Shown here piece by piece: positions 38,027 to 51,310 of a stretch of 64,000 bases of DNA. The translations under genes and the position numbers were made by a program. This DNA comes from an uncultured Candidatus Saccharibacteria bacterium. GTDB taxonomy: Bacteria; Patescibacteriota; Minisyncoccia; Phycocordibacterales; CAIZLB01. Below the pieces are notes generated by a model that searched no databases, was not told the DNA's origin, and saw nothing but the letters and a program-made list of their open reading frames with translations. Numbering within the stretch: position 1 is the stretch's first letter; each line of letters opens with the position of its first letter. The stretch is from NCBI GenBank assembly GCA_964417855.1, contig CAYQJB010000001.1, forward strand, positions 230,709-294,708, in the 5' to 3' direction.

Positions 38027-39943
38027 ATGAAAAATAAAACACAGCTTAGATTCAGAAAATTGTTAAGCATAAACAAAACTTTAGTATTCTCTATGTTAAC
38101 AATGGCTTTACTGTTTTCAAATCTATTGGTAGGTGTAAACAAAGTATCGGCTGTAAGTATCTCAGAAGCTTCCAGAAAAGTAGTGGCTCCAACAATAACA
38201 GTAACTTCTCCAAACGGGGGTGAGATGTTTACTGTAGGTAAAACATACAAAATCAATTGGAAAAGTACCGGAGCTGCAGCTTCAAGAAAAGTACAGATAG
38301 GCATTATCGATACTCGTTTCAGCACAGAAGGTGGAGAAAGAGCTGAACAAATAATTGCTTTTTCAATTCCAAATGACGGAAGCTATTCTTGGAAGGTGCC
38401 TGCAAAAATAGGTACTATGAACCTAAATGTCACAACACGTCCTGTGTATAAAATAATTGTACATTCATATTTGGATTTAGAAACAGGGATAGGGCTTGGT
38501 GATTTAAGTAATGGTCCTTTTGCTATACAAGATCTTTCTCCTGTTATTTCATCGCTTTCACCTGTAAATGGTTTAGTTGGAAGTAAGGTAAAAATAACTG
38601 GCTCGGGTTTTAGACTCCCAAATAAAGTTATTTTTGTAGGCTCTACAAACGCAGTTGTTGGGCAAGGTTCAGACACTGTTTCTCCAATTAACGGTGAGTT
38701 TGTTAGTAAAGATGTAAAGCCTACAGATGATAATAATTTGGTAGTTACTATTCCGTCAAAAATGTCAGCACAGGGTGGCGAGGATGGGAAAAGCCATCTG
38801 GGGGCAGATGTTATCCCTGGTAATTATTACTTTATAGTTGAGACAGATAATGGTAAAAGTACCCCCACCTATTTCAAGGTTCGTTCAAAGGATCCGATAC
38901 AAAGTACGTCTACTCCGGTACAAGTTTCTCCAACAATTACATCAGCAGGGGAACCAGGTTTTGTGAAGGCTATGGCACGACCTGATCAAACTGGGGCTGC
39001 TGCAGATATTTACACAGCAACTTTTAATGTGAAGATTAAAGCTGAAGGAAAGGATGTTGTCCTTGGTCTCTCAAACTCACCATGGCCTTTATTTGGAAAA
39101 ACATCTGACTTTGTACAGATATATAAAAATGGTTCTATGGATCCATTGCTTTATGGTTTAAATGTAAACTATGCTGTGCCAGTAGGGGCAATTCCTTCTA
39201 CTGATGGTATGACATTTAAGGTTCTTGCTGGAAGTAGTGTTTCGGTTCCAGTGATGTATTCTTTTCAAGTTAAGGATTCTTCTGCAAGTCTTTACGGAAT
39301 TCAGTTAAAGGCCGTAGGTTTTGATTCTAAAGTTCTTGGTTTTAATCCACTAATGTCAGCTGGACCAGGAGTTCCTTCAGCCACAACTGCAACTATTGCA
39401 CCTGTTGTTACTACAATTGGTACACCTCTGTTTACAAAAAATTATTCAAATGGCCAGACTGGAGCATCTTTCTATACAGCTTCTTTTGAAATGAACATTG
39501 CAAATCCTTTAAATACAGACATTGTTCTAGGGCATCCAAATTCTTCATGGCCAGCATTCGGGACAAGTTCTAATTATGTTCAAATAATAAAGAATGGAGT
39601 TGTTGATATGGCGGATTATAATTTATCTGTTGTGTACGCTTCACCAACTGGTGCTATTAATTCTACCGATGGAAAGACATTTAAAATTCTGGCTCGTAGT
39701 GTGGCGAATGTAAGGGTTAGCTATTTATTCAGTAAAGCGAGTCAATCAGCTGATATCTACAAGGTTAATTTAAGAGGACTCGGATGGGGTACTGTAACTC
39801 AGCCAAATCAGATAGTCCCACTTAGTATCTCTACTCCGTTAGCTTTTGATATCAATAAGCTTTCCCAAAAAGCAAATGTAATGGATGCATTTGGGACATG
39901 GATTATGGATATATGGGATGGTGTGTTCGGTATATTTAGATAA
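38027..39943 (+). CDS. Secreted or surface Ser/Thr/Gly-rich protein with an internally duplicated domain of about 110 aa
   Basis: N-terminal signal or transmembrane segment. Two homologous segments: ...ADIYTATFNVKIKAEGKDVVLGLSNSPWPLFG...FVQIYKNG... and ...ASFYTASFEMNIANPLNTDIVLGHPNSSWPAFG...YVQIIKNG... Confidence 0.5.
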   Translation: MKNKTQLRFRKLLSINKTLVFSMLTMALLFSNLLVGVNKVSAVSISEASRKVVAPTITVTSPNGGEMFTVGKTYKINWKSTGAAASRKVQIGIIDTRFSTEGGERAEQIIAFSIPNDGSYSWKVPAKIGTMNLNVTTRPVYKIIVHSYLDLETGIGLGDLSNGPFAIQDLSPVISSLSPVNGLVGSKVKITGSGFRLPNKVIFVGSTNAVVGQGSDTVSPINGEFVSKDVKPTDDNNLVVTIPSKMSAQGGEDGKSHLGADVIPGNYYFIVETDNGKSTPTYFKVRSKDPIQSTSTPVQVSPTITSAGEPGFVKAMARPDQTGAAADIYTATFNVKIKAEGKDVVLGLSNSPWPLFGKTSDFVQIYKNGSMDPLLYGLNVNYAVPVGAIPSTDGMTFKVLAGSSVSVPVMYSFQVKDSSASLYGIQLKAVGFDSKVLGFNPLMSAGPGVPSATTATIAPVVTTIGTPLFTKNYSNGQTGASFYTASFEMNIANPLNTDIVLGHPNSSWPAFGTSSNYVQIIKNGVVDMADYNLSVVYASPTGAINSTDGKTFKILARSVANVRVSYLFSKASQSADIYKVNLRGLGWGTVTQPNQIVPLSISTPLAFDINKLSQKANVMDAFGTWIMDIWDGVFGIFR

Positions 39944-40078: not shown

Positions 40079-43000
40079 ATGACTGATTTAAAACAAGAAG
40101 ATAAATTGTTAGAAGATAAGGACAAAGGGGTAGAGAGCGCTATAGGCGATAAGATTACCACTGACGCTGTAATTGACGAAACTAAGCAAATTACAGAAAT
40201 CACTGAAACCCCAATAACTATTAAAGAAAAGGCTATTTTAAATTTTTGGAATGATAATCAAATTTTTGAGAAAACCCTGCTAAAAAATTCACCACTTGGT
40301 AACTTTGTGTTTTACGATGGTCCACCATACGCAACTGGGCTACCTCACTTTGGACACATGGTGCCAAACTCGTTAAAAGACCTTATCCCAAGATATAGGA
40401 CTATGAGAGGGTATCATGTAGATAGAAAATGGGGATGGGACTGTCACGGTCTTCCTGTTGAGAACCTGATTGAAAAAAGATTAGGACTTGCTGATAAAAA
40501 AGCTATTGAGGAATATGGTATTGATAAATTTAATATTGCAGCCAAAGAGAGTGTTTTAATTTATGCCGATGAATGGAAGGAGAGAATTCAAAGAATTGGT
40601 AGATGGTCAGACATGGACAATGATTACAGAACTATGGATTCTAGTTATACAGAATCTGTATGGTGGTCATTTTCAGAGTTGGATAAAAAAGGTCTTGTAT
40701 TTGAAGACTACAAAGTAATGCAAATTTGCCCAAGATGTGGAACTCCGCTTTCTAACTTTGAGGTTGCGCAGGGTTATAAGGATATTGTTGATATTTCATT
40801 ATATGCAAAGTTTCAAATAAATGATGAAGCTTCTTTTTCTACTATAAAAAAGTTTTACGATATAGATCCCGCAGTTAAAACTTCTTTTGTTGCTTGGACT
40901 ACTACTCCTTGGACTCTTCCTGGAAACGTGGCTCTTGCAGTAAATCCAGAATTAAATTATGTAATTGTCTCAGCTAAATCAGAAACTGTTGCCGGCGGGT
41001 CAACAGAAGGTACTCTTGAAAATTATATTATTGCAGAAAGTCTTTTTGAATTACTTAAAACTAAAAAAATAATTCCTGAAGATTCTACATTGTTGTCACT
41101 GCGGGACACAAAGAATTCATTAACTGGAAATGATTTGGCTGGTGTTTCTTATGAGCCAGTTTTTGATTACTACAAAAAAGAGGGAACACTGGAAACTTCA
41201 GAAAAGGATAGAAAAAATATTTGGAAAGTTTATACAGCTCCTTTTGTTACAGCAGAAGATGGTACAGGAATAGTTCATATTGCACCTGCGTATGGAGATG
41301 ATGACATGAAGTTGTCTAAAACAAATTCAATTCCCGTGATTAAGCACGTTGGATACGATGGACATTTTGTTGATTTAGTTGAGGAAATGAAAGGAAAAAT
41401 TGCTAAACCAAAGGAAGATCATCAAAGTTCTGATATTGAAATCATCAAAATCTTAGCTCATAAAGGCGTTCTGCTTGCAAAAGAAAAGATGACTCACTCA
41501 TACCCACACTGTTGGAGATGTGAGACACCATTAATAAACTTTGCAACATCAAGTTTGTTTGTTAGAACAACAGCTCTTAAGGATAAGTTAATTGCAGAAA
41601 ATAATAAAATAAATTGGGTGCCAAAAGAAATTGGATCCGCTCGTTTTGGCGATTGGTTGGAAAATGTTAGAGATTGGGCAATATCAAGAACGAGATTCTG
41701 GGGAGCGCCTGTTCCTATGTGGAAATCAGAAAGTGGAAAAACAGAAATCCTAGGATCATATGCTGAGCTTAAGGAAAAAATTAGACAAAGCTCAAATAAT
41801 AATAAGTATGTACTAATGCGACACGGTGAATCCGAGTCCAATGTACATGACATTATAAATTCACACGATCTTAACCTTTATGGTCTAACTGAAAAAGGTG
41901 TTGCTCAAGTTGAGGCTGCTGCAAAACTTTTAGACGCTACTGGTGTTGTATCAAATGCTGTAAACAGCGATGCTGAGGAAGGTTCAAATGACAGTGTAGA
42001 TAAAACAGGAGCGAAGCGTCCAATAACAAAAATGTATTGTTCAGATTTTAGAAGAACAAAAGAGTCTGCGAAAATTTTGGCAAAGACTTTGGGAATTGAT
42101 GAATCGAACATAATCTATGACGCAAGACTTAGAGAGTGTGATGGTGGCGAGCTTGAAGGTCGTTCTTGGAATGAAAGGCTTACATGCTTTATGACAGAAT
42201 GGCAAAAAGTATTTCTAAAGCCATATGGAGGGGAGTCAACTTTTGATATTAAAAAGAGAGTTGCTAATTTTCTTTATGAAACTGACTCTGCAAACAAGGA
42301 CGAGAATATCTTGATTGTTACACATGGACTTCCTGCAAGAATGATAAAGGAAGTTGCTAAAGGGCGAACAACAAGAGATATGATAAGAAGTGGATGGCAG
42401 GATCGTTCTGATATAAATGCTTCACTTCACTACATTGATTTCGTTCAATGGCCTCACGATGATAATTTTGAACTTGATATTCACAGACCTTTAATTGATG
42501 CTGTAACTTGGAAAAATGAAGAAGGTGAATTAATGAAAAGAATTCCAGATGTTTTTGATGTTTGGTATGACTCTGGTTCTATGCCTTTTGCTTCTCAGCA
42601 TTATCCTTTTGAAAACAAGAAGGAGTTTGAAATGCCAGATAGTAAGATATTCCCAGCTGATTATATTGCCGAAGGATTGGATCAAACAAGAGGTTGGTTT
42701 TATTCTCTACTTTGTCTTGGTGTTGGATTGTTTGATAAGTCACCATTCAGAAATGTTTCAGTAAACGGACTTGTTCTAGCAGAGGACGGCAAGAAGATGT
42801 CAAAGAGTCTTAATAACTTCCCAGAGCTTATGGGGGTAGTTGAAAGATATGGCGCTGACTCACTTAGATATGCATTGGTCACATCGCCCGTTGCACAAGC
42901 TGAGGATTATGCCTTTTCTGAAAAAGCATTAGATGAAGTTAATAAAAAGCTATTCAATAGATTGGATAATGTTTATACATTCTACAAAACTTATCGTGAC

Positions 43001-43900
43001 ATGTTTGGAGGTGAAATTGAACAAAGTTTTTATCAGCTTGTTTCCAAAAATGTCTTAGATCAATGGATTGTGGCAAGACTTAAGAAATTGAGTAATGACA
43101 TGACGAGGGATCTTGATGCGTATCTGATATCAAAAGCTATTCGTCCAATAAATCAATTTATCGATGATCTATCAACTTGGTATTTAAGAAGATCAAGAGA
43201 CAGATTCAAAGGTGATGATGTTGAAGATAGAAACTATGCGATTTCAACAATGAGATTTGTCTTAATTAATCTTTCTAAATTAATAACACCAGTAACACCA
43301 TTTTCAGGAGAGGATTTGTATCAAAAGATTAAATTAGATAATATTGGTGATTTAAAATTAAGTGTGAACCTAGAGGAATGGCCAAATCTTGGCGAGCTTT
43401 CTGATGAAGAAGAGACACTGCTTGCTAATATGGAAACAGCGAGATCTCTTGTTGAAACTGGATTGTCTCTTCGTGCAAAATTTCAGATAAAAGTTAGACA
43501 ACCTCTTGCTTCATTTGTTTATGCAAACAAGGAAGGAGAAACTCTACCGGTGAGCATTGAGGAGATTATTAAAGATGAACTAAACGTTAAGTCTGTTGTA
43601 GCGGGCAGTGCTGTAGCACTCGATATAAACCTAACACAAGAATTAAAGGAAGAGGGGATGTCCAGAGATCTAATTAGAGCTATTCAGGAGGCTAGAAAAG
43701 CTTTTGGTTTTTCTCCACAAGATAAAATTATTCTGGAATTAGAAGATAATGCTGTTGGAAAAATGTTAGAGTCTAAGTATTCTGCCTCAATTGCAAAAAC
43801 TGTTCTCGCAAACAGTTTGGTGCTTATGGATTTTGAGGGAGGAGAGGCTGTGTCTATTGGAGATCAAGAAATACATTTCACAATTAAGGCTGTTGTATAA
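40079..43900 (+). CDS. ileS: Isoleucine--tRNA ligase carrying an inserted histidine-phosphatase (RHG-motif) domain of about 225 aa
   Basis: YDGPPYATGLPHFGHM (HIGH), CP1 editing signature TTTPWTLPGN, WAISRTRFWGAPVPMW and KMSKSLNN. Between the FWGAPVPMW segment and DVWYDSGS lies YVLMRHGESESN...ILIVTHGLP (histidine phosphatase branch 1). Confidence 0.9.
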   Translation: MTDLKQEDKLLEDKDKGVESAIGDKITTDAVIDETKQITEITETPITIKEKAILNFWNDNQIFEKTLLKNSPLGNFVFYDGPPYATGLPHFGHMVPNSLKDLIPRYRTMRGYHVDRKWGWDCHGLPVENLIEKRLGLADKKAIEEYGIDKFNIAAKESVLIYADEWKERIQRIGRWSDMDNDYRTMDSSYTESVWWSFSELDKKGLVFEDYKVMQICPRCGTPLSNFEVAQGYKDIVDISLYAKFQINDEASFSTIKKFYDIDPAVKTSFVAWTTTPWTLPGNVALAVNPELNYVIVSAKSETVAGGSTEGTLENYIIAESLFELLKTKKIIPEDSTLLSLRDTKNSLTGNDLAGVSYEPVFDYYKKEGTLETSEKDRKNIWKVYTAPFVTAEDGTGIVHIAPAYGDDDMKLSKTNSIPVIKHVGYDGHFVDLVEEMKGKIAKPKEDHQSSDIEIIKILAHKGVLLAKEKMTHSYPHCWRCETPLINFATSSLFVRTTALKDKLIAENNKINWVPKEIGSARFGDWLENVRDWAISRTRFWGAPVPMWKSESGKTEILGSYAELKEKIRQSSNNNKYVLMRHGESESNVHDIINSHDLNLYGLTEKGVAQVEAAAKLLDATGVVSNAVNSDAEEGSNDSVDKTGAKRPITKMYCSDFRRTKESAKILAKTLGIDESNIIYDARLRECDGGELEGRSWNERLTCFMTEWQKVFLKPYGGESTFDIKKRVANFLYETDSANKDENILIVTHGLPARMIKEVAKGRTTRDMIRSGWQDRSDINASLHYIDFVQWPHDDNFELDIHRPLIDAVTWKNEEGELMKRIPDVFDVWYDSGSMPFASQHYPFENKKEFEMPDSKIFPADYIAEGLDQTRGWFYSLLCLGVGLFDKSPFRNVSVNGLVLAEDGKKMSKSLNNFPELMGVVERYGADSLRYALVTSPVAQAEDYAFSEKALDEVNKKLFNRLDNVYTFYKTYRDMFGGEIEQSFYQLVSKNVLDQWIVARLKKLSNDMTRDLDAYLISKAIRPINQFIDDLSTWYLRRSRDRFKGDDVEDRNYAISTMRFVLINLSKLITPVTPFSGEDLYQKIKLDNIGDLKLSVNLEEWPNLGELSDEEETLLANMETARSLVETGLSLRAKFQIKVRQPLASFVYANKEGETLPVSIEEIIKDELNVKSVVAGSAVALDINLTQELKEEGMSRDLIRAIQEARKAFGFSPQDKIILELEDNAVGKMLESKYSASIAKTVLANSLVLMDFEGGEAVSIGDQEIHFTIKAVV

Positions 43901-43962: not shown

Positions 43963-44559
43963 ATGTCATATAGAATTTATCACACCGATGGATATATAAT
44001 AGATAGTTCAAGCTCGGGGGAGTCTAATAAAGTTTTTACAATTCTAACTGCAGAGCTAGGTACTATTATTGCTATCGCACAAGGGGTGCGTAAATTGCAA
44101 TCAAAACTAAGATATAGTTTACAGGACTTGAGTTTTGCTAAATTTGCCTTAGTTAGGGGAAAGGACATTTGGAGAATTACGGGGGCGGAAAAAATCGTTA
44201 ATATTTATGACAAAAAAGTTCCAATTCAAATTAGACAATCCTTGGCTAGAATTCTAACTTTCATTAAAAGGCTTTCGCCGGGTGAGGCTGTAAACAAAAA
44301 AGTATTTGAGGAGTTTGGAAAACTACATAAGGTTTTAATCTCATCGAAGCTTGTAAGAGATAGGAATGATTTAATTGCAATAGAAACGCTTGCATGCCTT
44401 AGGGTTGCTCATCATTTTGGATATGGAACACCAAGTGAAAAATTGAAGGACATTGTTTATTCATCAGTTTGGGATGAGGGAGTGAGAGACTCGACATTAA
44501 TTTCAATTGAGGAAGCTAAGAGAGAGCTGTCTTCTGTCTTGGCTGAAGCTCAACTTTAA
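43963..44559 (+). CDS. RecO-like DNA repair protein (short form)
   Basis: The N-terminal OB-fold pattern YHTDGYIIDSSSSGESNKVFTILTAELGTIIAIAQGVRKLQSKL resembles RecO GIVL..DYGESDKIV.L.T.E.G.I.AIAKGAR. Confidence 0.5.
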   Translation: MSYRIYHTDGYIIDSSSSGESNKVFTILTAELGTIIAIAQGVRKLQSKLRYSLQDLSFAKFALVRGKDIWRITGAEKIVNIYDKKVPIQIRQSLARILTFIKRLSPGEAVNKKVFEEFGKLHKVLISSKLVRDRNDLIAIETLACLRVAHHFGYGTPSEKLKDIVYSSVWDEGVRDSTLISIEEAKRELSSVLAEAQL

Positions 44560-44715: not shown

Positions 44716-46647
44716 ATGAATGATGAAGAAAAAATCGAAGAGCTGAAAAAAAAGCTTTACTCTCGAGTAGATAATCTACCAAAAATGAAACATGCCAAAC
44801 TGCATGAGCATCATGTCTTGGTAAACAGAGACTGGGATGAAAAGGGGGAGCAGGCAGGGATACCAAAAATTGAATATGGAAAAAATAAAACTCACTCATT
44901 CCTAAAAGGTATGGCTGTTTTTGCTGTAATATTTTTCTTGATTGCCGCTGCAATAGCTTATTATTTTTTCATGGTCAGCCCCAATACAATTTCTAATGCA
45001 AATATTGGAATAAACATATCAGGGCCTATTACAGTTTCTGCAGGCCAAGAACTTTCACTGGACGTAAGTATATTCAATAATAATAGTGTAGCAATTGAAT
45101 CAGCAGACCTTGTTGTTACATACCCAGAAGGAACAAGAAATTCTGTAGATAAGGTGACGAGCCTTGTAACCGATAGGACTCCAATAGGAGATATAGCGGC
45201 CGGCGCTAATCAAAGAGTTACAATAAAGTCTATTCTTTTGGGGGAGGAAGGCTCAACAAAAAATATATCTATTGCTTTGGAGTATAAAATGCCTGGTACA
45301 AACAGTCTTTTTATTAAGCAAAAAGATTATCCAATAGGCATAGGAACAGGTCCTGTTTCCGTGACCGTTGATTCTGTTAAGGAAATCACCCCAGAACAAA
45401 ATACAAAATTTACTGTATCTGTTAAATCTAACTCTTCAGATGTTATCAGAGATGTTGTTCTTAGGTCAGAGTATCCTTTTGGATTTAATTATATATCTGC
45501 AGTCCCTGGTCCGTCATCATCAAATAATAGTTGGAGACTGGGAGACATCGCACCAGGTGAGGTGAAGAAAATTGTGGTAGAAGCAAAGATTTTTGGGCAA
45601 GCTAATCAAGAGAGAACTGTTAGATTCTATGCTGGAACTGCGCAAGCCAAGGATCCAAATGAAATAGACACGACCTTCGCTTCATATTCACAGACGGTTA
45701 ATTTGAAGGATCCATTCTTAGGGGCTGATGTAGCTATAAATGGCAAGGGGTCAGAAATCGTTATTGTTAACAGTGGGCAGTTTATTCAGGGCGATATTCT
45801 GTGGAAGAATAATCTCGATGTTTCTGTTCATAATGTTCAAATTCTAGGTGTTCTAAATGGTGTAAGCGTAGACAGAAGCTCAATTATTGCAGAAGGTGGA
45901 TTTTATAAATCTAGCGATGATACCTTATCTTGGGAAAAGAGTACCAATCCAGAACTGGAAGACATCGCACCCAATCAAAGTGGCTCAGTCCATTTTAATA
46001 TGAAAGTTTTTGATTTAACAAAGGATCTAGCCTCAAATTTAAGAAGACCAGAAGTAACATTGGTTTTTTCGGTTAAGGGAACTAGATTAAATGAAAATAA
46101 AGTTTCTGAGGAAGTGACTTCACAGGCCTCAAGAAAAATAAGAGTTGCGAGTGATCTAGCTCTAGACACAAGGTTGCTTTACAATGATGGACCATTTGAA
46201 AACACAGGTCCATTGCCCCCAAGAGTAGATAGTAAAACAACTTACACGGCAAATGTGAAGATTTCAAACTCATATAATAATGTTAGGGGTGTAATTTATA
46301 CGGCCTCGCTACCGATATATGTAAAATGGCTGGGGAATGTAAGTCCAATGACCGCCAGTTCAACAGTTGTTTATGATGCTGAGAACAGAACTGTGACTTG
46401 GAATGCAGGGGACATTGCACCTGGTACTGGTTATATTTCTAATCCAAAAGAAATGACATTTCAAGTTGAGTTGTTGCCAAGTCTTTCTCAGCAGGGCCAA
46501 TCTCCAATTATTGTAAGTAATCAAAGAATAGCTGGTACTGATAGTTTTACTAATACAGTTGTTACAGCCAATGGGTACTCCTTAAACACCCAAATTAAGC
46601 TAGATTCAAAATATGATATGGATTTGGACAAGGTGGTTGGGAAGTAG
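44716..46647 (+). CDS. Membrane-anchored surface protein with repeated beta-rich (CARDB/DUF11-like) domains
   Basis: Cytoplasmic N-terminus, one transmembrane helix, then repeated patterns such as ISGPITVSAGQELSLDVSIFNNNSVAIESADLVVTYPEG and the recurring GDIAPG. Confidence 0.4.
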   Translation: MNDEEKIEELKKKLYSRVDNLPKMKHAKLHEHHVLVNRDWDEKGEQAGIPKIEYGKNKTHSFLKGMAVFAVIFFLIAAAIAYYFFMVSPNTISNANIGINISGPITVSAGQELSLDVSIFNNNSVAIESADLVVTYPEGTRNSVDKVTSLVTDRTPIGDIAAGANQRVTIKSILLGEEGSTKNISIALEYKMPGTNSLFIKQKDYPIGIGTGPVSVTVDSVKEITPEQNTKFTVSVKSNSSDVIRDVVLRSEYPFGFNYISAVPGPSSSNNSWRLGDIAPGEVKKIVVEAKIFGQANQERTVRFYAGTAQAKDPNEIDTTFASYSQTVNLKDPFLGADVAINGKGSEIVIVNSGQFIQGDILWKNNLDVSVHNVQILGVLNGVSVDRSSIIAEGGFYKSSDDTLSWEKSTNPELEDIAPNQSGSVHFNMKVFDLTKDLASNLRRPEVTLVFSVKGTRLNENKVSEEVTSQASRKIRVASDLALDTRLLYNDGPFENTGPLPPRVDSKTTYTANVKISNSYNNVRGVIYTASLPIYVKWLGNVSPMTASSTVVYDAENRTVTWNAGDIAPGTGYISNPKEMTFQVELLPSLSQQGQSPIIVSNQRIAGTDSFTNTVVTANGYSLNTQIKLDSKYDMDLDKVVGK

Positions 46648-47312: not shown

Positions 47313-48671
47313 ATGGAAGAAATAATTGCTTTAGCTAAAAGACGTGGATTTATATACCAAGGTTCTGAGATATATGGAGGTCTTGCTGGTACATGGGATT
47401 ATGGCCATTTGGGCCTAGCTCTTAAAAACAACATCAAAGCTCTTTGGTGGAAGCGTTTTGTGCTAGATAGAGAAGATATGTATGGAGTTGACGCTGCCAT
47501 TTTAATGAATCAAAATGTTTGGAAGGCGAGCGGTCACGTTGCTGGATTCTTTGACCCACTTGTTGATGACCTAAAGACAAATAAAAGATACAGAGCTGAC
47601 TCATTGCTTGAGGAAGCGGGCCTTAGTATTAAAGGTATGTCTATTGAAGACATGAATAATCTAATTAAGGAGAAGGGGATTAAAAGCCCAGAAGGCAATC
47701 CTCTTGGAGAAGTTAGACAATTTAGAATGATGTTCACTACTCACGTTGGGGCAAATCAAGATGAAGATTCAGTTTCATACTTACGTCCTGAAACAGCACA
47801 AGGAATGTTTGTAAACTTCAAAAATATTATAGACTCATTTCATCCAAAGCTTCCTTTTGGAATGGCACAAATTGGTAAGGCATTCAGAAATGAGATTGCA
47901 CCAAGAGATTTTATATTTAGAACTCGTGAGTTTGAGCAAATGGAAATAGAGTATTTTGTTTATCCTGTTGCCTGGGAGGTTTCCTTTGAGCTTTTTAGAA
48001 AAGAAATGCATGCCTTTGCCTCAGATGTTGGTCTGAATCCTGCAAAAGTTCATGAGCTGGAAATTGCGCCTGAAGACCTTGCTCACTATTCAAAAAGAAC
48101 AATAGACTTTGAGTTTGATTTCCCAATGGGAAGGAAAGAGCTGTACGGTCTAGCTTACAGAACTGATTTTGACCTTAAGAGTCACACAAATGCTTCAAAG
48201 GTAGATCTTTCTTTTTTCGATGAGGAAACAAAAGAACGTTTTTTTCCACACTGTATTGAGCCATCGCTTGGAGTAGACAGAACTGTTCTTGCTGTGCTAA
48301 CAGATGCATATTCAGAAGATATTGTGGGTGAAGAAAAAAGGGTTTATATGAAGATTTCTCCTAAAATCTCCCCTGTGTTAATTGCTGTCTTTCCACTCTT
48401 GAAGAATAAGCCTCAATTAGTTGAAAAGGCAAGAGAAATTTATAGTACATTAAGAAAAGCTTTTCCTGGAAGAATAATGTTTGATGATAATGGAAATATT
48501 GGAAAGAGATACAGAAGACAAGACGAAATAGGAACTCCTTATTGTATAACTGTTGATTTTGATACCTTAGAAAAGGATCAAAAAGTGACTCTAAGATATA
48601 GAGATTCAGCCTTACAGGACAGGCTTTCAATGGAGCAAATAATGGATGTTATTAAAGATACTTTGCAGTAG
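47313..48671 (+). CDS. glyQS: Glycine--tRNA ligase (alpha2 dimeric type)
   Basis: N-terminus MEEIIALAKRRGFIYQGSEIYGGLAGTWDYGHLG and class II motifs. Confidence 0.9.
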   Translation: MEEIIALAKRRGFIYQGSEIYGGLAGTWDYGHLGLALKNNIKALWWKRFVLDREDMYGVDAAILMNQNVWKASGHVAGFFDPLVDDLKTNKRYRADSLLEEAGLSIKGMSIEDMNNLIKEKGIKSPEGNPLGEVRQFRMMFTTHVGANQDEDSVSYLRPETAQGMFVNFKNIIDSFHPKLPFGMAQIGKAFRNEIAPRDFIFRTREFEQMEIEYFVYPVAWEVSFELFRKEMHAFASDVGLNPAKVHELEIAPEDLAHYSKRTIDFEFDFPMGRKELYGLAYRTDFDLKSHTNASKVDLSFFDEETKERFFPHCIEPSLGVDRTVLAVLTDAYSEDIVGEEKRVYMKISPKISPVLIAVFPLLKNKPQLVEKAREIYSTLRKAFPGRIMFDDNGNIGKRYRRQDEIGTPYCITVDFDTLEKDQKVTLRYRDSALQDRLSMEQIMDVIKDTLQ

Positions 48672-49828: not shown

Positions 49829-51310
49829 ATGACACAGAATAAAAAAACTTTTTACATCACCACAACATTACCTTATGTTAATGGTGATCCACATATAGGA
49901 TTTGCATTAGAAATTATTAGAGCTGATGTTATCGCTAGGTACAAAAAAGCCCTAGGCTATGATGTATTTTTTAATACAGGAACAGATGAACATGGTCTTA
50001 AGCTTTACGAAGCTGCAAAAGAAAAAGTGGTAGATATAATGGACTATTTGGATGAAGTGTCAGCAAAGTATAGAAATATTTTAACGGAATTGGATATTTC
50101 CGAGGATATTCATTTTATAAGAACAACGGATGAGCATCATAAAAAAAGTGCTCAAGCCCTTTGGAATAGAGTGTTTGAAAATGGTTATATCTATAAGAAA
50201 AACTATCAAACAAAGTACTGTGTAGGTTGTGAGGAGAATAAGACTGATTCAGAGTTAGAGGAAGGAAAATGCCCATTGCATCCTAATCGTCAAATTGAAT
50301 TGATCGATGAAGAGAATTATTTCTTCAAGCTTTCCGCTCTTCAAGATGATCTATTTACGCTTTTTGAGTCTAATCCAGAAATTGTGGTACCAGAAACTAG
50401 ATTAAATGAAATGAGAGGTTTTGTTAAAAGAGGCCTTGAGGATTTTAGTATTTCAAGATTGAAATCAAAAATGCCTTGGGGAATAGACGTGCCAGGGGAT
50501 GAGAATCAAGTTATGTATGTTTGGTTTGATGCTCTTACAAATTATATCTCAACATTAGGATGGCCTGAAAATGAGGGCGATGAGTTGGGAGATTTTAATA
50601 AATACTGGGTTAATGGAACACCTGTTCAATATTGTGGAAAAGACAATACCAGATTCCAGTCTATTACATGGCAATCAATGCTTTTAGCTGCTGGCTTGCC
50701 TACAACCCATAAAATTATAATAAACGGTTGGATAACTGGAGAGGGTGGAGTGAAGATGTCTAAATCGTTAGGTAATGTTATAAACCCATCAGACATTTGC
50801 TCAGAATTTAGCGCAGATGCTTTGAGGTTTTTTGTAACAAAAGAGTTACAGCCTTTTGAAGACTCACCTTTTACAGTAAGTAAATTTAAAGAAATTTATA
50901 ATGCTCACCTAGCAAATGGTATTGGTAATTTGGTTTCCAGAATGATGAAGATGGCAACTTCTTATGAAGCAAAGCTTAGTGAGGATGAAATAATGGCAGT
51001 TCGTGAATCTGTGGATATTTTGAATGGTAGGGAAGATAAAAATATTGAGGCCTTTAGATTAGACCTGTATGTTCAAGATATTTTCGATGAATTTACAAAA
51101 CTAGATCAATTTATTCAAAAAGAAGCACCTTTTAAGAAGTTTAAAATAGATCCGGAGGCAGCCAAAAAAGATTTAATATATTTACAGGAGCAATTATTGG
51201 CCGGAGCCTATAAACTATCTATCATAATGCCAAAGACCTCAGAAGTTATTGTTGATTGTATAGTGAATCATAAAATGCCAGAAGCACCTTTGTTTCTAAG
51301 AAAAGACTAA
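49829..51310 (+). CDS. metG: Methionine--tRNA ligase
   Basis: FYITTTLPYVNGDPHIGFALEIIRADVIARYKK (HIGH region) and KMSKSLGN. Confidence 0.9.
   Translation: MTQNKKTFYITTTLPYVNGDPHIGFALEIIRADVIARYKKALGYDVFFNTGTDEHGLKLYEAAKEKVVDIMDYLDEVSAKYRNILTELDISEDIHFIRTTDEHHKKSAQALWNRVFENGYIYKKNYQTKYCVGCEENKTDSELEEGKCPLHPNRQIELIDEENYFFKLSALQDDLFTLFESNPEIVVPETRLNEMRGFVKRGLEDFSISRLKSKMPWGIDVPGDENQVMYVWFDALTNYISTLGWPENEGDELGDFNKYWVNGTPVQYCGKDNTRFQSITWQSMLLAAGLPTTHKIIINGWITGEGGVKMSKSLGNVINPSDICSEFSADALRFFVTKELQPFEDSPFTVSKFKEIYNAHLANGIGNLVSRMMKMATSYEAKLSEDEIMAVRESVDILNGREDKNIEAFRLDLYVQDIFDEFTKLDQFIQKEAPFKKFKIDPEAAKKDLIYLQEQLLAGAYKLSIIMPKTSEVIVDCIVNHKMPEAPLFLRKD

Follow-up and report, generated by a model that had tools for sequence, protein, structure and literature searches.

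The window studied here is a stretch of 64,000 nucleotides (nt) from an uncultured Candidatus Saccharibacteria bacterium (contig CAYQJB010000001.1, positions 230,709 to 294,708 of the forward strand). Its ileS gene encodes an isoleucyl-tRNA synthetase (IleRS) that carries a complete, apparently active histidine phosphatase nested in a surface loop of its catalytic domain. The gene is a single unbroken open reading frame (ORF) of 1273 amino acids (aa); its features and the neighbouring synteny anchors are listed in Table 1. The encoded protein passed the class Ia ileS model TIGR00392 of NCBIfam (838.7 bits, cut-off 621.4) and remained below the respective cut-offs of the ValRS, LeuRS and MetRS models. 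Pfam detected the domains tRNA-synt_1 (E=1e-125), Anticodon_1 (E=2e-25) and DUF5915 (E=2e-18). As the original prediction had claimed, the synthetase core is canonical, with the HIGH signature, the editing motif TTTPWTLPGN of connective peptide 1 (CP1; aa 274), the motif WAISRTRFWGAPVPMW, DVWYDSGS and KMSKS at the places it named. Column invariance of the HIGH, editing and KMSKS motifs was judged in an alignment of 63 homologues (A3), in which the TTTPWTL columns are invariant. The second CP1 editing motif, of the GTGxVHxAP type, is present as GTGIVHIAPAYG.

An AlphaFold2 (AF2) model of aa 48-1247 reached a predicted local distance difference test score (pLDDT) of 87 and a predicted template-modelling score (pTM) of 0.78. 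In a Foldseek search, its best fold matches in the PDB were IleRS2 of P. megaterium (8c8v/8c9d), the yeast IleRS and the T. thermophilus enzyme (1ile). The protein resembles the mupirocin-resistant, eukaryote-like type-2 enzymes, represented by 8c8v and 1ile, over the entire scaffold (TMt 0.74-0.83), that is, over the Rossmann fold with HIGH and KMSKS, the zinc knuckles, CP1, CP2/CP3, the anticodon-binding domain and DUF5915. The type-2 assignment follows from the better match to IleRS2 (E=2e-74) than to IleRS1 (8c9e, E=7e-52) and from the presence of DUF5915. Judged by its sequence, the window protein is thus a normal type-2 IleRS with apparently intact HIGH and KMSKS signatures, editing site and anticodon-binding domains. 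It starts with an extension of about 47 aa (40079..40219) ahead of the conserved IleRS start, which is of low complexity, acidic and poorly predicted. On the opposite strand, an ORF of 119 aa (41494..41853), in all likelihood spurious, overlaps ileS and the beginning of the insert; a similar ORF lies opposite ileS in one of the related loci described below (L082).

In the yeast and Candida enzymes, the segment between the WN/AISRxRYWG linker and the return to the Rossmann fold forms the CP3 subdomain, which contains a zinc motif in T. thermophilus (PMC7191050, PMC7955072). The linker between CP2 and CP3 is part of the pocket for the 3' end of the tRNA (PMC7955072). Based on sequence alignment and these published domain boundaries (PMC7191050, PMC7955072), we place the phosphatase in CP3, after the first helix (...GSYAELKEKIRQSSNN) and before ELDIHRPLID. 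The distance between the WG of the linker and DVW is 284 aa in the window protein and 56-60 aa in insert-free relatives, in agreement with the expansion of roughly 225 aa that had been proposed for this region. While the CP3 of the window protein holds an enzyme domain of 222 aa, every solved IleRS lacks one. Furthermore, the zinc-binding cysteine pair of CP3, present in T. thermophilus IleRS, has been lost from the window protein. The insertion point is identical across all fused forms examined.

The insert had been predicted to be a histidine phosphatase of branch 1 between nt 41790 and 42480. We recovered His_Phos_1 (PF00300) with E=5e-27 and 95.3 bits (gathering score 21.7) in two matched stretches, the better of which covers aa 645-770, and the refined bounds fall within the predicted span. 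The motif KYVLMRHGES (aa 576) lies near the start of the insert and ILIVTHGLP at aa 744. The excised domain aligns with Bacillus PhoE across the RHG motif, the arginine of SDFRRT, the glutamate of RLRE and the histidine of VTHG, so that the previously noted signature of RHG...N and a later H belongs to an intact set (R581/H582/N588/R659/E686/H749). Conservation of these residues, as given in Table 1, was counted over 178 full-length fused homologues. A model of the excised domain, built with AF2 from 36 aligned sequences, had a mean pLDDT of 90.1 and a pTM of 0.87, and its poorly predicted acidic loop (aa 621-647) is restricted to the window protein and close relatives. When this model was compared with the PDB using Foldseek, it matched Rv2419c (GpgP), PspA and PhoE with a probability of 1.0 and template-modelling scores of 0.68-0.77, with true mutases ranking lower. 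A profile search of PDB sequences likewise placed PhoE (E=2e-25), PspA and TIGAR on top. PhoE, PspA, GpgP and CobC are the nearest structural neighbours of the domain. Sequence and model together suggest only a short cap segment between the catalytic glutamate and the GGES motif. The inserts are mildly acidic (median net charge −4) and have no conserved basic patch beyond the catalytic arginines.
Table 1 Features of the ileS locus and of related split loci. The columns give the feature, the position (in nt of the window unless a locus is named), the strand and the supporting evidence or context.
Feature	Position	Strand	Evidence or context
argS (arginyl-tRNA synthetase), upstream synteny anchor	36068..37876	+	Pfam
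ileS, type-2 IleRS with nested phosphatase, 1273 aa	40079..43900	+	ORF, TIGR00392, Pfam, AF2
HIGH signature HFGH, aa 90-93	40346..40357	+	Motif position; His/Gly columns invariant in A3
CP core zinc knuckles CPRC (aa 217) and CWRC (aa 478) around the CP1 editing domain	40727..41521	+	Motif positions; Cys columns invariant in A3
CP2-CP3 linker motif WAISRTRFWGAPVPMW (aa 533) and N-terminal CP3 (strand-strand-helix, aa 549-573)	41675..41797	+	Motif position; secondary structure from the full AF2 model
His_Phos_1 (histidine phosphatase branch 1), aa 574-795	41798..42463	+	PF00300, AF2, Foldseek, profile search
RHG motif: R581, nucleophile H582, G583	41819..41827	+	R and H in 178/178 homologues; aligns with RHG of PhoE
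N588 (equivalent to N17 of cofactor-dependent phosphoglycerate mutase)	41840..41842	+	Asn in 164/178 homologues (92%)
Acidic low-complexity loop inside the phosphatase, ~aa 621-647, ~27 aa	41939..42019	+	pLDDT <50; gap columns in ≥90% of homologues
R659, second phosphate-binding arginine (SDFRRT)	42053..42055	+	Arg in 177/178 homologues; aligns with conserved Arg of PhoE
E686, putative proton donor (RLRE)	42134..42136	+	99% conserved; aligns with RLRE Glu of PhoE
H749, second catalytic histidine (IVTHG)	42323..42325	+	His in 178/178 homologues; aligns with VTHG His of PhoE
C-terminal CP3 (ELDIHRPLID...MKRIP) and return to the Rossmann fold (DVWYDSGS, aa 827-834)	42464..42580	+	H802, D807, D827 and W829 invariant; aligned with short CP3
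KMSKS signature, aa 906-910	42794..42808	+	Motif position; K/M/K columns invariant in A3
Anticodon-binding domain (aa 994-1143) and C-terminal DUF5915 tRNA-binding domain (aa 1178-1270)	43058..43888	+	Pfam; typical of type-2 IleRS
recO, downstream synteny anchor	43963..44559	+	Pfam; followed by a DUF11 surface-protein gene (44716-46647)
Stand-alone phosphatase genes	L082 1128-1694; L085-L089 4501-~5070		Between argS and insert-free ileS; Portnoybacteria/Staskawiczbacteria-like genomes

The domain had also been called phosphoglycerate-mutase-like. This label is apt for the fold alone. The scores stayed below the NCBIfam cut-offs for CobC (alpha-ribazole phosphatase, TIGR03162; 76.8 bits, cut-off 162.9), the phosphoserine phosphatase PspA (NF045917; 45.8 bits, cut-off 350) and cofactor-dependent phosphoglycerate mutase (dPGM; NF038349 with 72 bits, cut-off 225, and TIGR01258 with 16.9 bits, cut-off 81.7). 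The catalytic core aligns with E. coli GpmA. The mutase ligands of GpmA, which we take to be Y92, K100, R116 and R117, are conserved neither in the inserted nor in the stand-alone family described below, where the aligned positions are occupied by G/A/F, S/P/T, F and a gap, respectively, although the C-terminal half of this alignment is unreliable. The small branch-1 phosphatases PhoE/YhfR (1ebb, 1h2e), PspA/iPSP1 (4ij5), the glucosyl-3-phosphoglycerate phosphatase Rv2419c (4pz9, 6s2q) and CobC (6nru) share with the insert the fold, the size of about 200 aa, the R-H...R...E...H arrangement and the short cap. However, they are only 21-23% identical to it, and they are free-standing proteins whereas the window domain is nested in another enzyme. 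As far as sequence and model indicate, the insert is therefore a complete PhoE-like phosphatase fold with an intact catalytic set that lies outside any characterised subfamily.

We searched for relatives of the full protein, of the junctions and of the domain alone. PF00300 occurs together with IleRS domains in every one of the 120 best homologues found with the full protein (46-100% identity), which are named as Paceibacterota, Patescibacteria or 'class I tRNA ligase family protein'. An exhaustive search with a query of 320 aa spanning the junctions returned 138 clusters (at the 50% identity level) with E≤1e-30. Among contigs representing one genome per species, a genome scan with a narrower alignment (A2) found 140 stretches encoding a relative, of which 80 loci were kept. 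In 78 of these, IleRS sequence continues in frame on either side of the domain, and the remaining two are truncated at the end of a contig. The fusion is therefore present at the same site in all 78 complete species-level loci, spread across Paceibacteria/Parcubacteria; the lineages include Kaiser-, Nomura-, Taylor-, Vogel-, Lloyd- and Sungbacteria as well as Paceibacter. The domain-only search yielded three stand-alone proteins and no fused IleRS; the fused family surfaced with the full-length and junction queries. The insertion is thus lineage-wide and not peculiar to one genome. The recurrence in many independent assemblies also answers the concern, raised with the original prediction, that a frameshift artefact had been seen. 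A frameshift, a chimera or a recent foreign insertion is ruled out by the continuous ORF, the uniform GC content (0.36-0.40 in the insert, as in the remainder of the gene) and the 78 complete independent loci.

The inserted domains have diverged to a median pairwise identity of 36%, yet the catalytic residues R581, H582, R659, E686 and H749 are 99-100% conserved in the 178 sequences, and the divergence of insert and core is correlated (r=0.79). At the level of sequence, this pattern indicates purifying selection on the catalytic site and long co-inheritance with the synthetase, and not a decaying remnant.

With the domain as query, the sole relatives outside IleRS were the three proteins mentioned above, which comprise 188-212 aa and are each encoded beside ileS or argS. 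A profile of the three led to a large family of about 188 aa in Patescibacteria, with Portnoybacteria and Staskawiczbacteria among the named sources. In all eight loci with informative flanks, the gene order is argS - phosphatase - ileS, and the IleRS, with 931-981 aa, is insert-free in each. The phosphatase and ileS genes overlap by 4-7 nt in four of these loci, are separated by 1-10 nt in three and by 185 nt in one. A recO gene and a gene with DUF11/CLIPPER repeats follow downstream in five of the eight. The window locus is syntenic with these split loci (argS ... ileS - recO - DUF11), with the phosphatase inside ileS instead. Among the 80 fused loci, argS was located upstream in 44 and recO was found in 65; an extra adjacent phosphatase gene was not found in the fused loci, apart from one weak antisense match. 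The IleRS of the split loci are 42-47% identical to the window core, compared with 46% overall for the most distant fused homologues among the 120 best.

The stand-alone proteins start, like the inserted domains, with N-x-[YF]-h-h-h-RHGE, and the insert corresponds to essentially the entire stand-alone protein. A hidden Markov model built from inserts only scored the ileS-adjacent family with 163-222 bits. PhoE reached about 93 bits on a profile that differs from this model (A1, made from 33 inserts and the three stand-alone sequences). The stand-alone phosphatases (for example P0001, P0331 and P0368) share the catalytic set and the argS...ileS-recO locus with the inserted domains and are at most 54% identical to them. 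They differ in being encoded by a separate cistron upstream of an insert-free ileS and in a higher median mutual identity (52% versus 36% among inserted domains). By these sequence comparisons, the ileS-adjacent phosphatase of about 188 aa is the specific sister family of the insert. The CP3 of the five split-form IleRS examined is short and rich in cysteines, with 56-60 aa between WG and D[CV]W and the pattern CxxC...CxxC in three and CxxC...CxC in two proteins (L086, L087). Of 160 fused homologues with readable motifs, 51 have kept CxxC...CxC pairs on either side of the insert and 109 have lost them. These data fit the view that the insert entered a CP3 of the zinc type, as found in the split forms. 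As a separate observation, a gene for a 23S rRNA intervening-sequence protein (PF05635) is located between smpB and infC in two split loci (L086 1261-1611, L087 1240-1587).

Phylogenetic analysis left more than one history for the fusion. In a neighbour-joining tree of the IleRS core, a clean bipartition of split and fused forms was recovered in 0 of 100 bootstrap replicates, and one split form clustered with the fused proteins P0192, P0203 and P0270 in 91 of 100. Stand-alone and inserted domains were separated weakly in the phosphatase tree (13 of 100 replicates). Split- and fused-form IleRS are hence interspersed although the insertion site is identical, and the trees may reflect either one insertion followed by reversal or several insertions.

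Some relatives contain further enzyme domains. Besides the CP3 phosphatase, P0209 has two GNAT domains, P0238 a NUDIX domain and P0204 a P-loop kinase-like domain. P0209 (L081 6001-10686) stems from a high-GC organism, and members of its cluster lie on contigs of up to 2.1 Mb. The kinase-like domain of P0204 could not be assigned to a family; its PDB matches, to APS kinase, shikimate kinase and Pnkp1, were weak (E=0.02-0.06) and none was significant. A second phosphatase copy is present in the C-terminal CP3 hairpin of P0256, P0288 and P0290, and within the anticodon-binding domain of P0202. On this comparison, histidine phosphatases have entered IleRS at no fewer than three distinct sites. 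The IleRS of these bacteria has thus repeatedly gained nucleotide- or small-molecule-modifying domains, namely a phosphatase (sometimes twice), NUDIX, GNAT and a kinase-like domain.

NCBIfam describes one comparable case, 'ileS_w_GNAT' (NF040702), in which a complete small-molecule-modifying enzyme is likewise inserted into IleRS and to which the GNAT-containing P0209 provides a parallel. Fold and insertion sites are different there, and the window protein is not a member (316 bits, cut-off 1999; no acetyltransferase match in Pfam). Branch-1 phosphatases are also joined to a second catalytic domain in MutT1 (NUDIX and histidine phosphatase), Rv2228c (RNase H and CobC-like acid phosphatase) and PFK-2/FBPase-2. 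These are end-to-end fusions and none involves an aminoacyl-tRNA synthetase, whereas the window domain is nested in a loop. The IleRS variant P0238 combines NUDIX with His_Phos_1 like MutT1, for which NCBIfam gives just the name; the mycobacterial enzyme is a nucleotide phosphatase. Scores for the window protein and the excised insert were low with PRK07238 (56-60 bits, cut-off 326), and the MutT1 model matched the stand-alone P0001 only (19.8 bits, cut-off 475).

Aminoacyl-tRNA synthetases are among the best-catalogued enzymes, and the nested domains known from them are editing modules or modules that bind RNA or protein. The expectation that the architecture is non-standard was upheld: it is absent from the solved IleRS structures, the phosphatase domain is not listed in the domain catalogue of AARS Online, and our full-text literature search turned up no account of an IleRS that bears a histidine phosphatase domain. 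In NCBIfam, the GNAT-containing IleRS has its own exception model and the phosphatase-nested form has none, and public records name the proteins generically ('class I tRNA ligase family protein' or 'isoleucyl-tRNA synthetase'). The sequences themselves are already in the databases with precomputed Pfam matches; what is new is the description of a class Ia synthetase with a nested phosphatase. A complete second enzyme thus lies inside the catalytic domain of a synthetase, with its active site intact across a large branch of the CPR (candidate phyla radiation), and forms a separate cistron in sister lineages. Its conservation in nested and split form provides a clear comparative-genomic pointer to an activity coupled to IleRS. 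The split and fused forms also constitute a natural pair that is suited for asking whether the free protein docks where the fused version is inserted.

Given the conserved catalytic set, we consider it very likely that the domain is an active phosphatase. Following the chemistry of the family, H582 would attack a phosphomonoester or a terminal phosphate and become transiently phosphorylated, with R581, R659 and H749 binding the phosphate and E686 donating a proton to the leaving group. With regard to its role, for which proofreading, regulation or moonlighting had been suggested, functional coupling to IleRS seems probable. We lean, with modest confidence, towards a bifunctional enzyme, in which a normal type-2 IleRS carries a complete PhoE/PspA/CobC-like phosphatase in CP3 that is dedicated to the synthetase. 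The phosphatase would then be tied to IleRS as its dedicated partner rather than carried along by chance, because the association recurs as a neighbouring or overlapping cistron, as a domain nested in CP3 and as independent second copies at two other sites of IleRS. The substrate could be tied to adenylate chemistry, for instance AMP, ADP, ApnA-type by-products or another small phosphorylated nucleotide. A small molecule of the nucleotide type is only tentatively favoured over the tRNA 3' end, because CP3 adjoins the adenylate/CCA pocket, the co-occurrence with NUDIX recalls MutT1, and the domain is mildly acidic and lacks a conserved basic surface.

Several points weigh against a dedicated bifunctional enzyme. 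The phosphatase domain does not reach any equivalog cut-off of NCBIfam, the ArgRS and MetRS of the window, which are also class I enzymes, do not contain a phosphatase domain, and nothing in the chemistry of IleRS obviously calls for a phosphatase. Besides, recO is likewise conserved beside ileS, and adjacency in the streamlined CPR genomes is a weak sign of a functional link. A nested domain may also persist simply because it is hard to un-fuse. The main rival has a minor but appreciable probability: the insert could be a passenger, a housekeeping or metabolic phosphatase that was once the upstream neighbour of ileS, was captured into the permissive CP3 loop by local rearrangement and is mechanistically unlinked to aminoacylation. 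It would have been retained since neither activity is dispensable and the fusion is not easily reversed. The order argS-phosphatase-ileS-recO indeed sits in a generally conserved housekeeping block with unrelated genes, the fold is a generic PhoE-like one with a short cap, and the insert evolves faster than the IleRS core (~33% versus ~45-50% identity at the same depth). Moreover, GNAT, NUDIX and kinase-like domains show that the IleRS of these lineages also accommodates unrelated inserts. However, a mere passenger would not readily account for the repeated independent insertion of histidine phosphatases into IleRS at three or more sites, nor for an association kept in split and fused form over deep divergence, with overlapping stop and start codons at ileS in four of the eight split loci.

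It may be speculated that the phosphatase even forms a third catalytic site of the synthetase, acting on a compound that the IleRS reaction itself consumes or produces, either by clearing an adenine-nucleotide by-product at the mouth of the synthetic site or by freeing the 3' end of tRNAIle from a phosphate that blocks it. We regard this as possible and rather doubtful. Parcubacteria would in that case have made a new clean-up or repair step, directed at nucleotides or tRNA, part of aminoacylation, and the stand-alone homologues would represent a detachable IleRS subunit.

A role confined to the tRNA end appears improbable. According to this explanation, the domain would strip the 3' end of tRNAIle of a 2'/3'-phosphate, a phosphate derived from a cyclic phosphate, or a pyrophosphate, for instance following damage by a nuclease or toxin, so that A76 becomes chargeable. 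The synthetase would thereby contain a repair site of its own. This would be consistent with the start of CP3 at the linker that lines the CCA pocket (PMC7955072), with the short cap before the GGES motif and with P0204, where the phosphatase is paired with a P-loop kinase-like domain whose weak, non-significant PDB matches include Pnkp1. That domain, however, fits no family, damage of this kind would not be specific to tRNAIle, and the acidic phosphatase offers no conserved basic patch besides its catalytic arginines. We also know of no branch-1 histidine phosphatase that acts on RNA ends.

Still less probable is a hidden glycolytic enzyme, that is, a cofactor-dependent phosphoglycerate mutase (PGM) or another phosphatase of central metabolism such as a phosphoserine phosphatase, which would explain the apparent loss of PGM in some Parcubacteria. 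Several shallow Parcubacteria clades were reported to lack PGM, possibly because their genes have diverged beyond detection (Jaffe et al. 2020, PMC7304191). In line with such a role, the short archaeal dPGM model is the best NCBIfam match of the stand-alone relative (103 bits) and the second-best of the insert, and the profile search also retrieved the short dPGM of S. pombe (1fzt). Yet both families remain far below the mutase cut-offs (72 or 103 versus 225 bits for archaeal dPGM, and 16.9 versus 81.7 for pgm_1), the presumed GpmA ligands are not conserved, and the closest solved relatives by profile and fold are phosphatases and not mutases. Irrespective of its substrate, the embedded phosphatase is invisible to metabolic reconstructions, including those behind the reported PGM absence, because the annotated names are generic.

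The superfamily includes the protein phosphatases SixA, PGAM5 and Sts-1, and the stand-alone relative has a weak SixA match (34.7 bits, cut-off 74.5), but a protein phosphatase that dephosphorylates IleRS or a partner is highly improbable with no kinase partner encoded in the neighbourhood (window and split loci), as is a non-catalytic phosphate or ligand sensor regulating IleRS, since conservation of the full catalytic set including the proton donor suggests turnover rather than mere binding.

The surroundings of ileS in the window contain some further genes. Two large predicted surface proteins flank ileS and recO on the forward strand, one with Ig-like Kre9/TIG domains (38027..39943) and one with DUF11/CLIPPER repeats (44716..46647); the gene of the former occupies the slot of the phosphatase gene in the split-form relatives. 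Four aminoacyl-tRNA synthetase genes are clustered within about 15 kb, encoding ArgRS (36068-37876), IleRS, a class II enzyme with an HGTP anticodon domain (47313-48671) and MetRS (49829-51310), and the phosphatase is present only in IleRS. Just upstream of argS and outside the conserved synteny of the split loci, a gene for a HIT-family (HinT-like) protein is encoded on the forward strand (35567..36022). HIT proteins hydrolyse aminoacyl-adenylates and phosphoramidates. Finally, a gene on the reverse strand (30744..33239) encodes a protein of 831 aa that combines the shoulder domain of Major Vault Protein (MVP; PF11978, E=8e-24) with a Vault_3 repeat (E=8e-7); such an MVP-like protein is unusual for a CPR-type bacterial genome.

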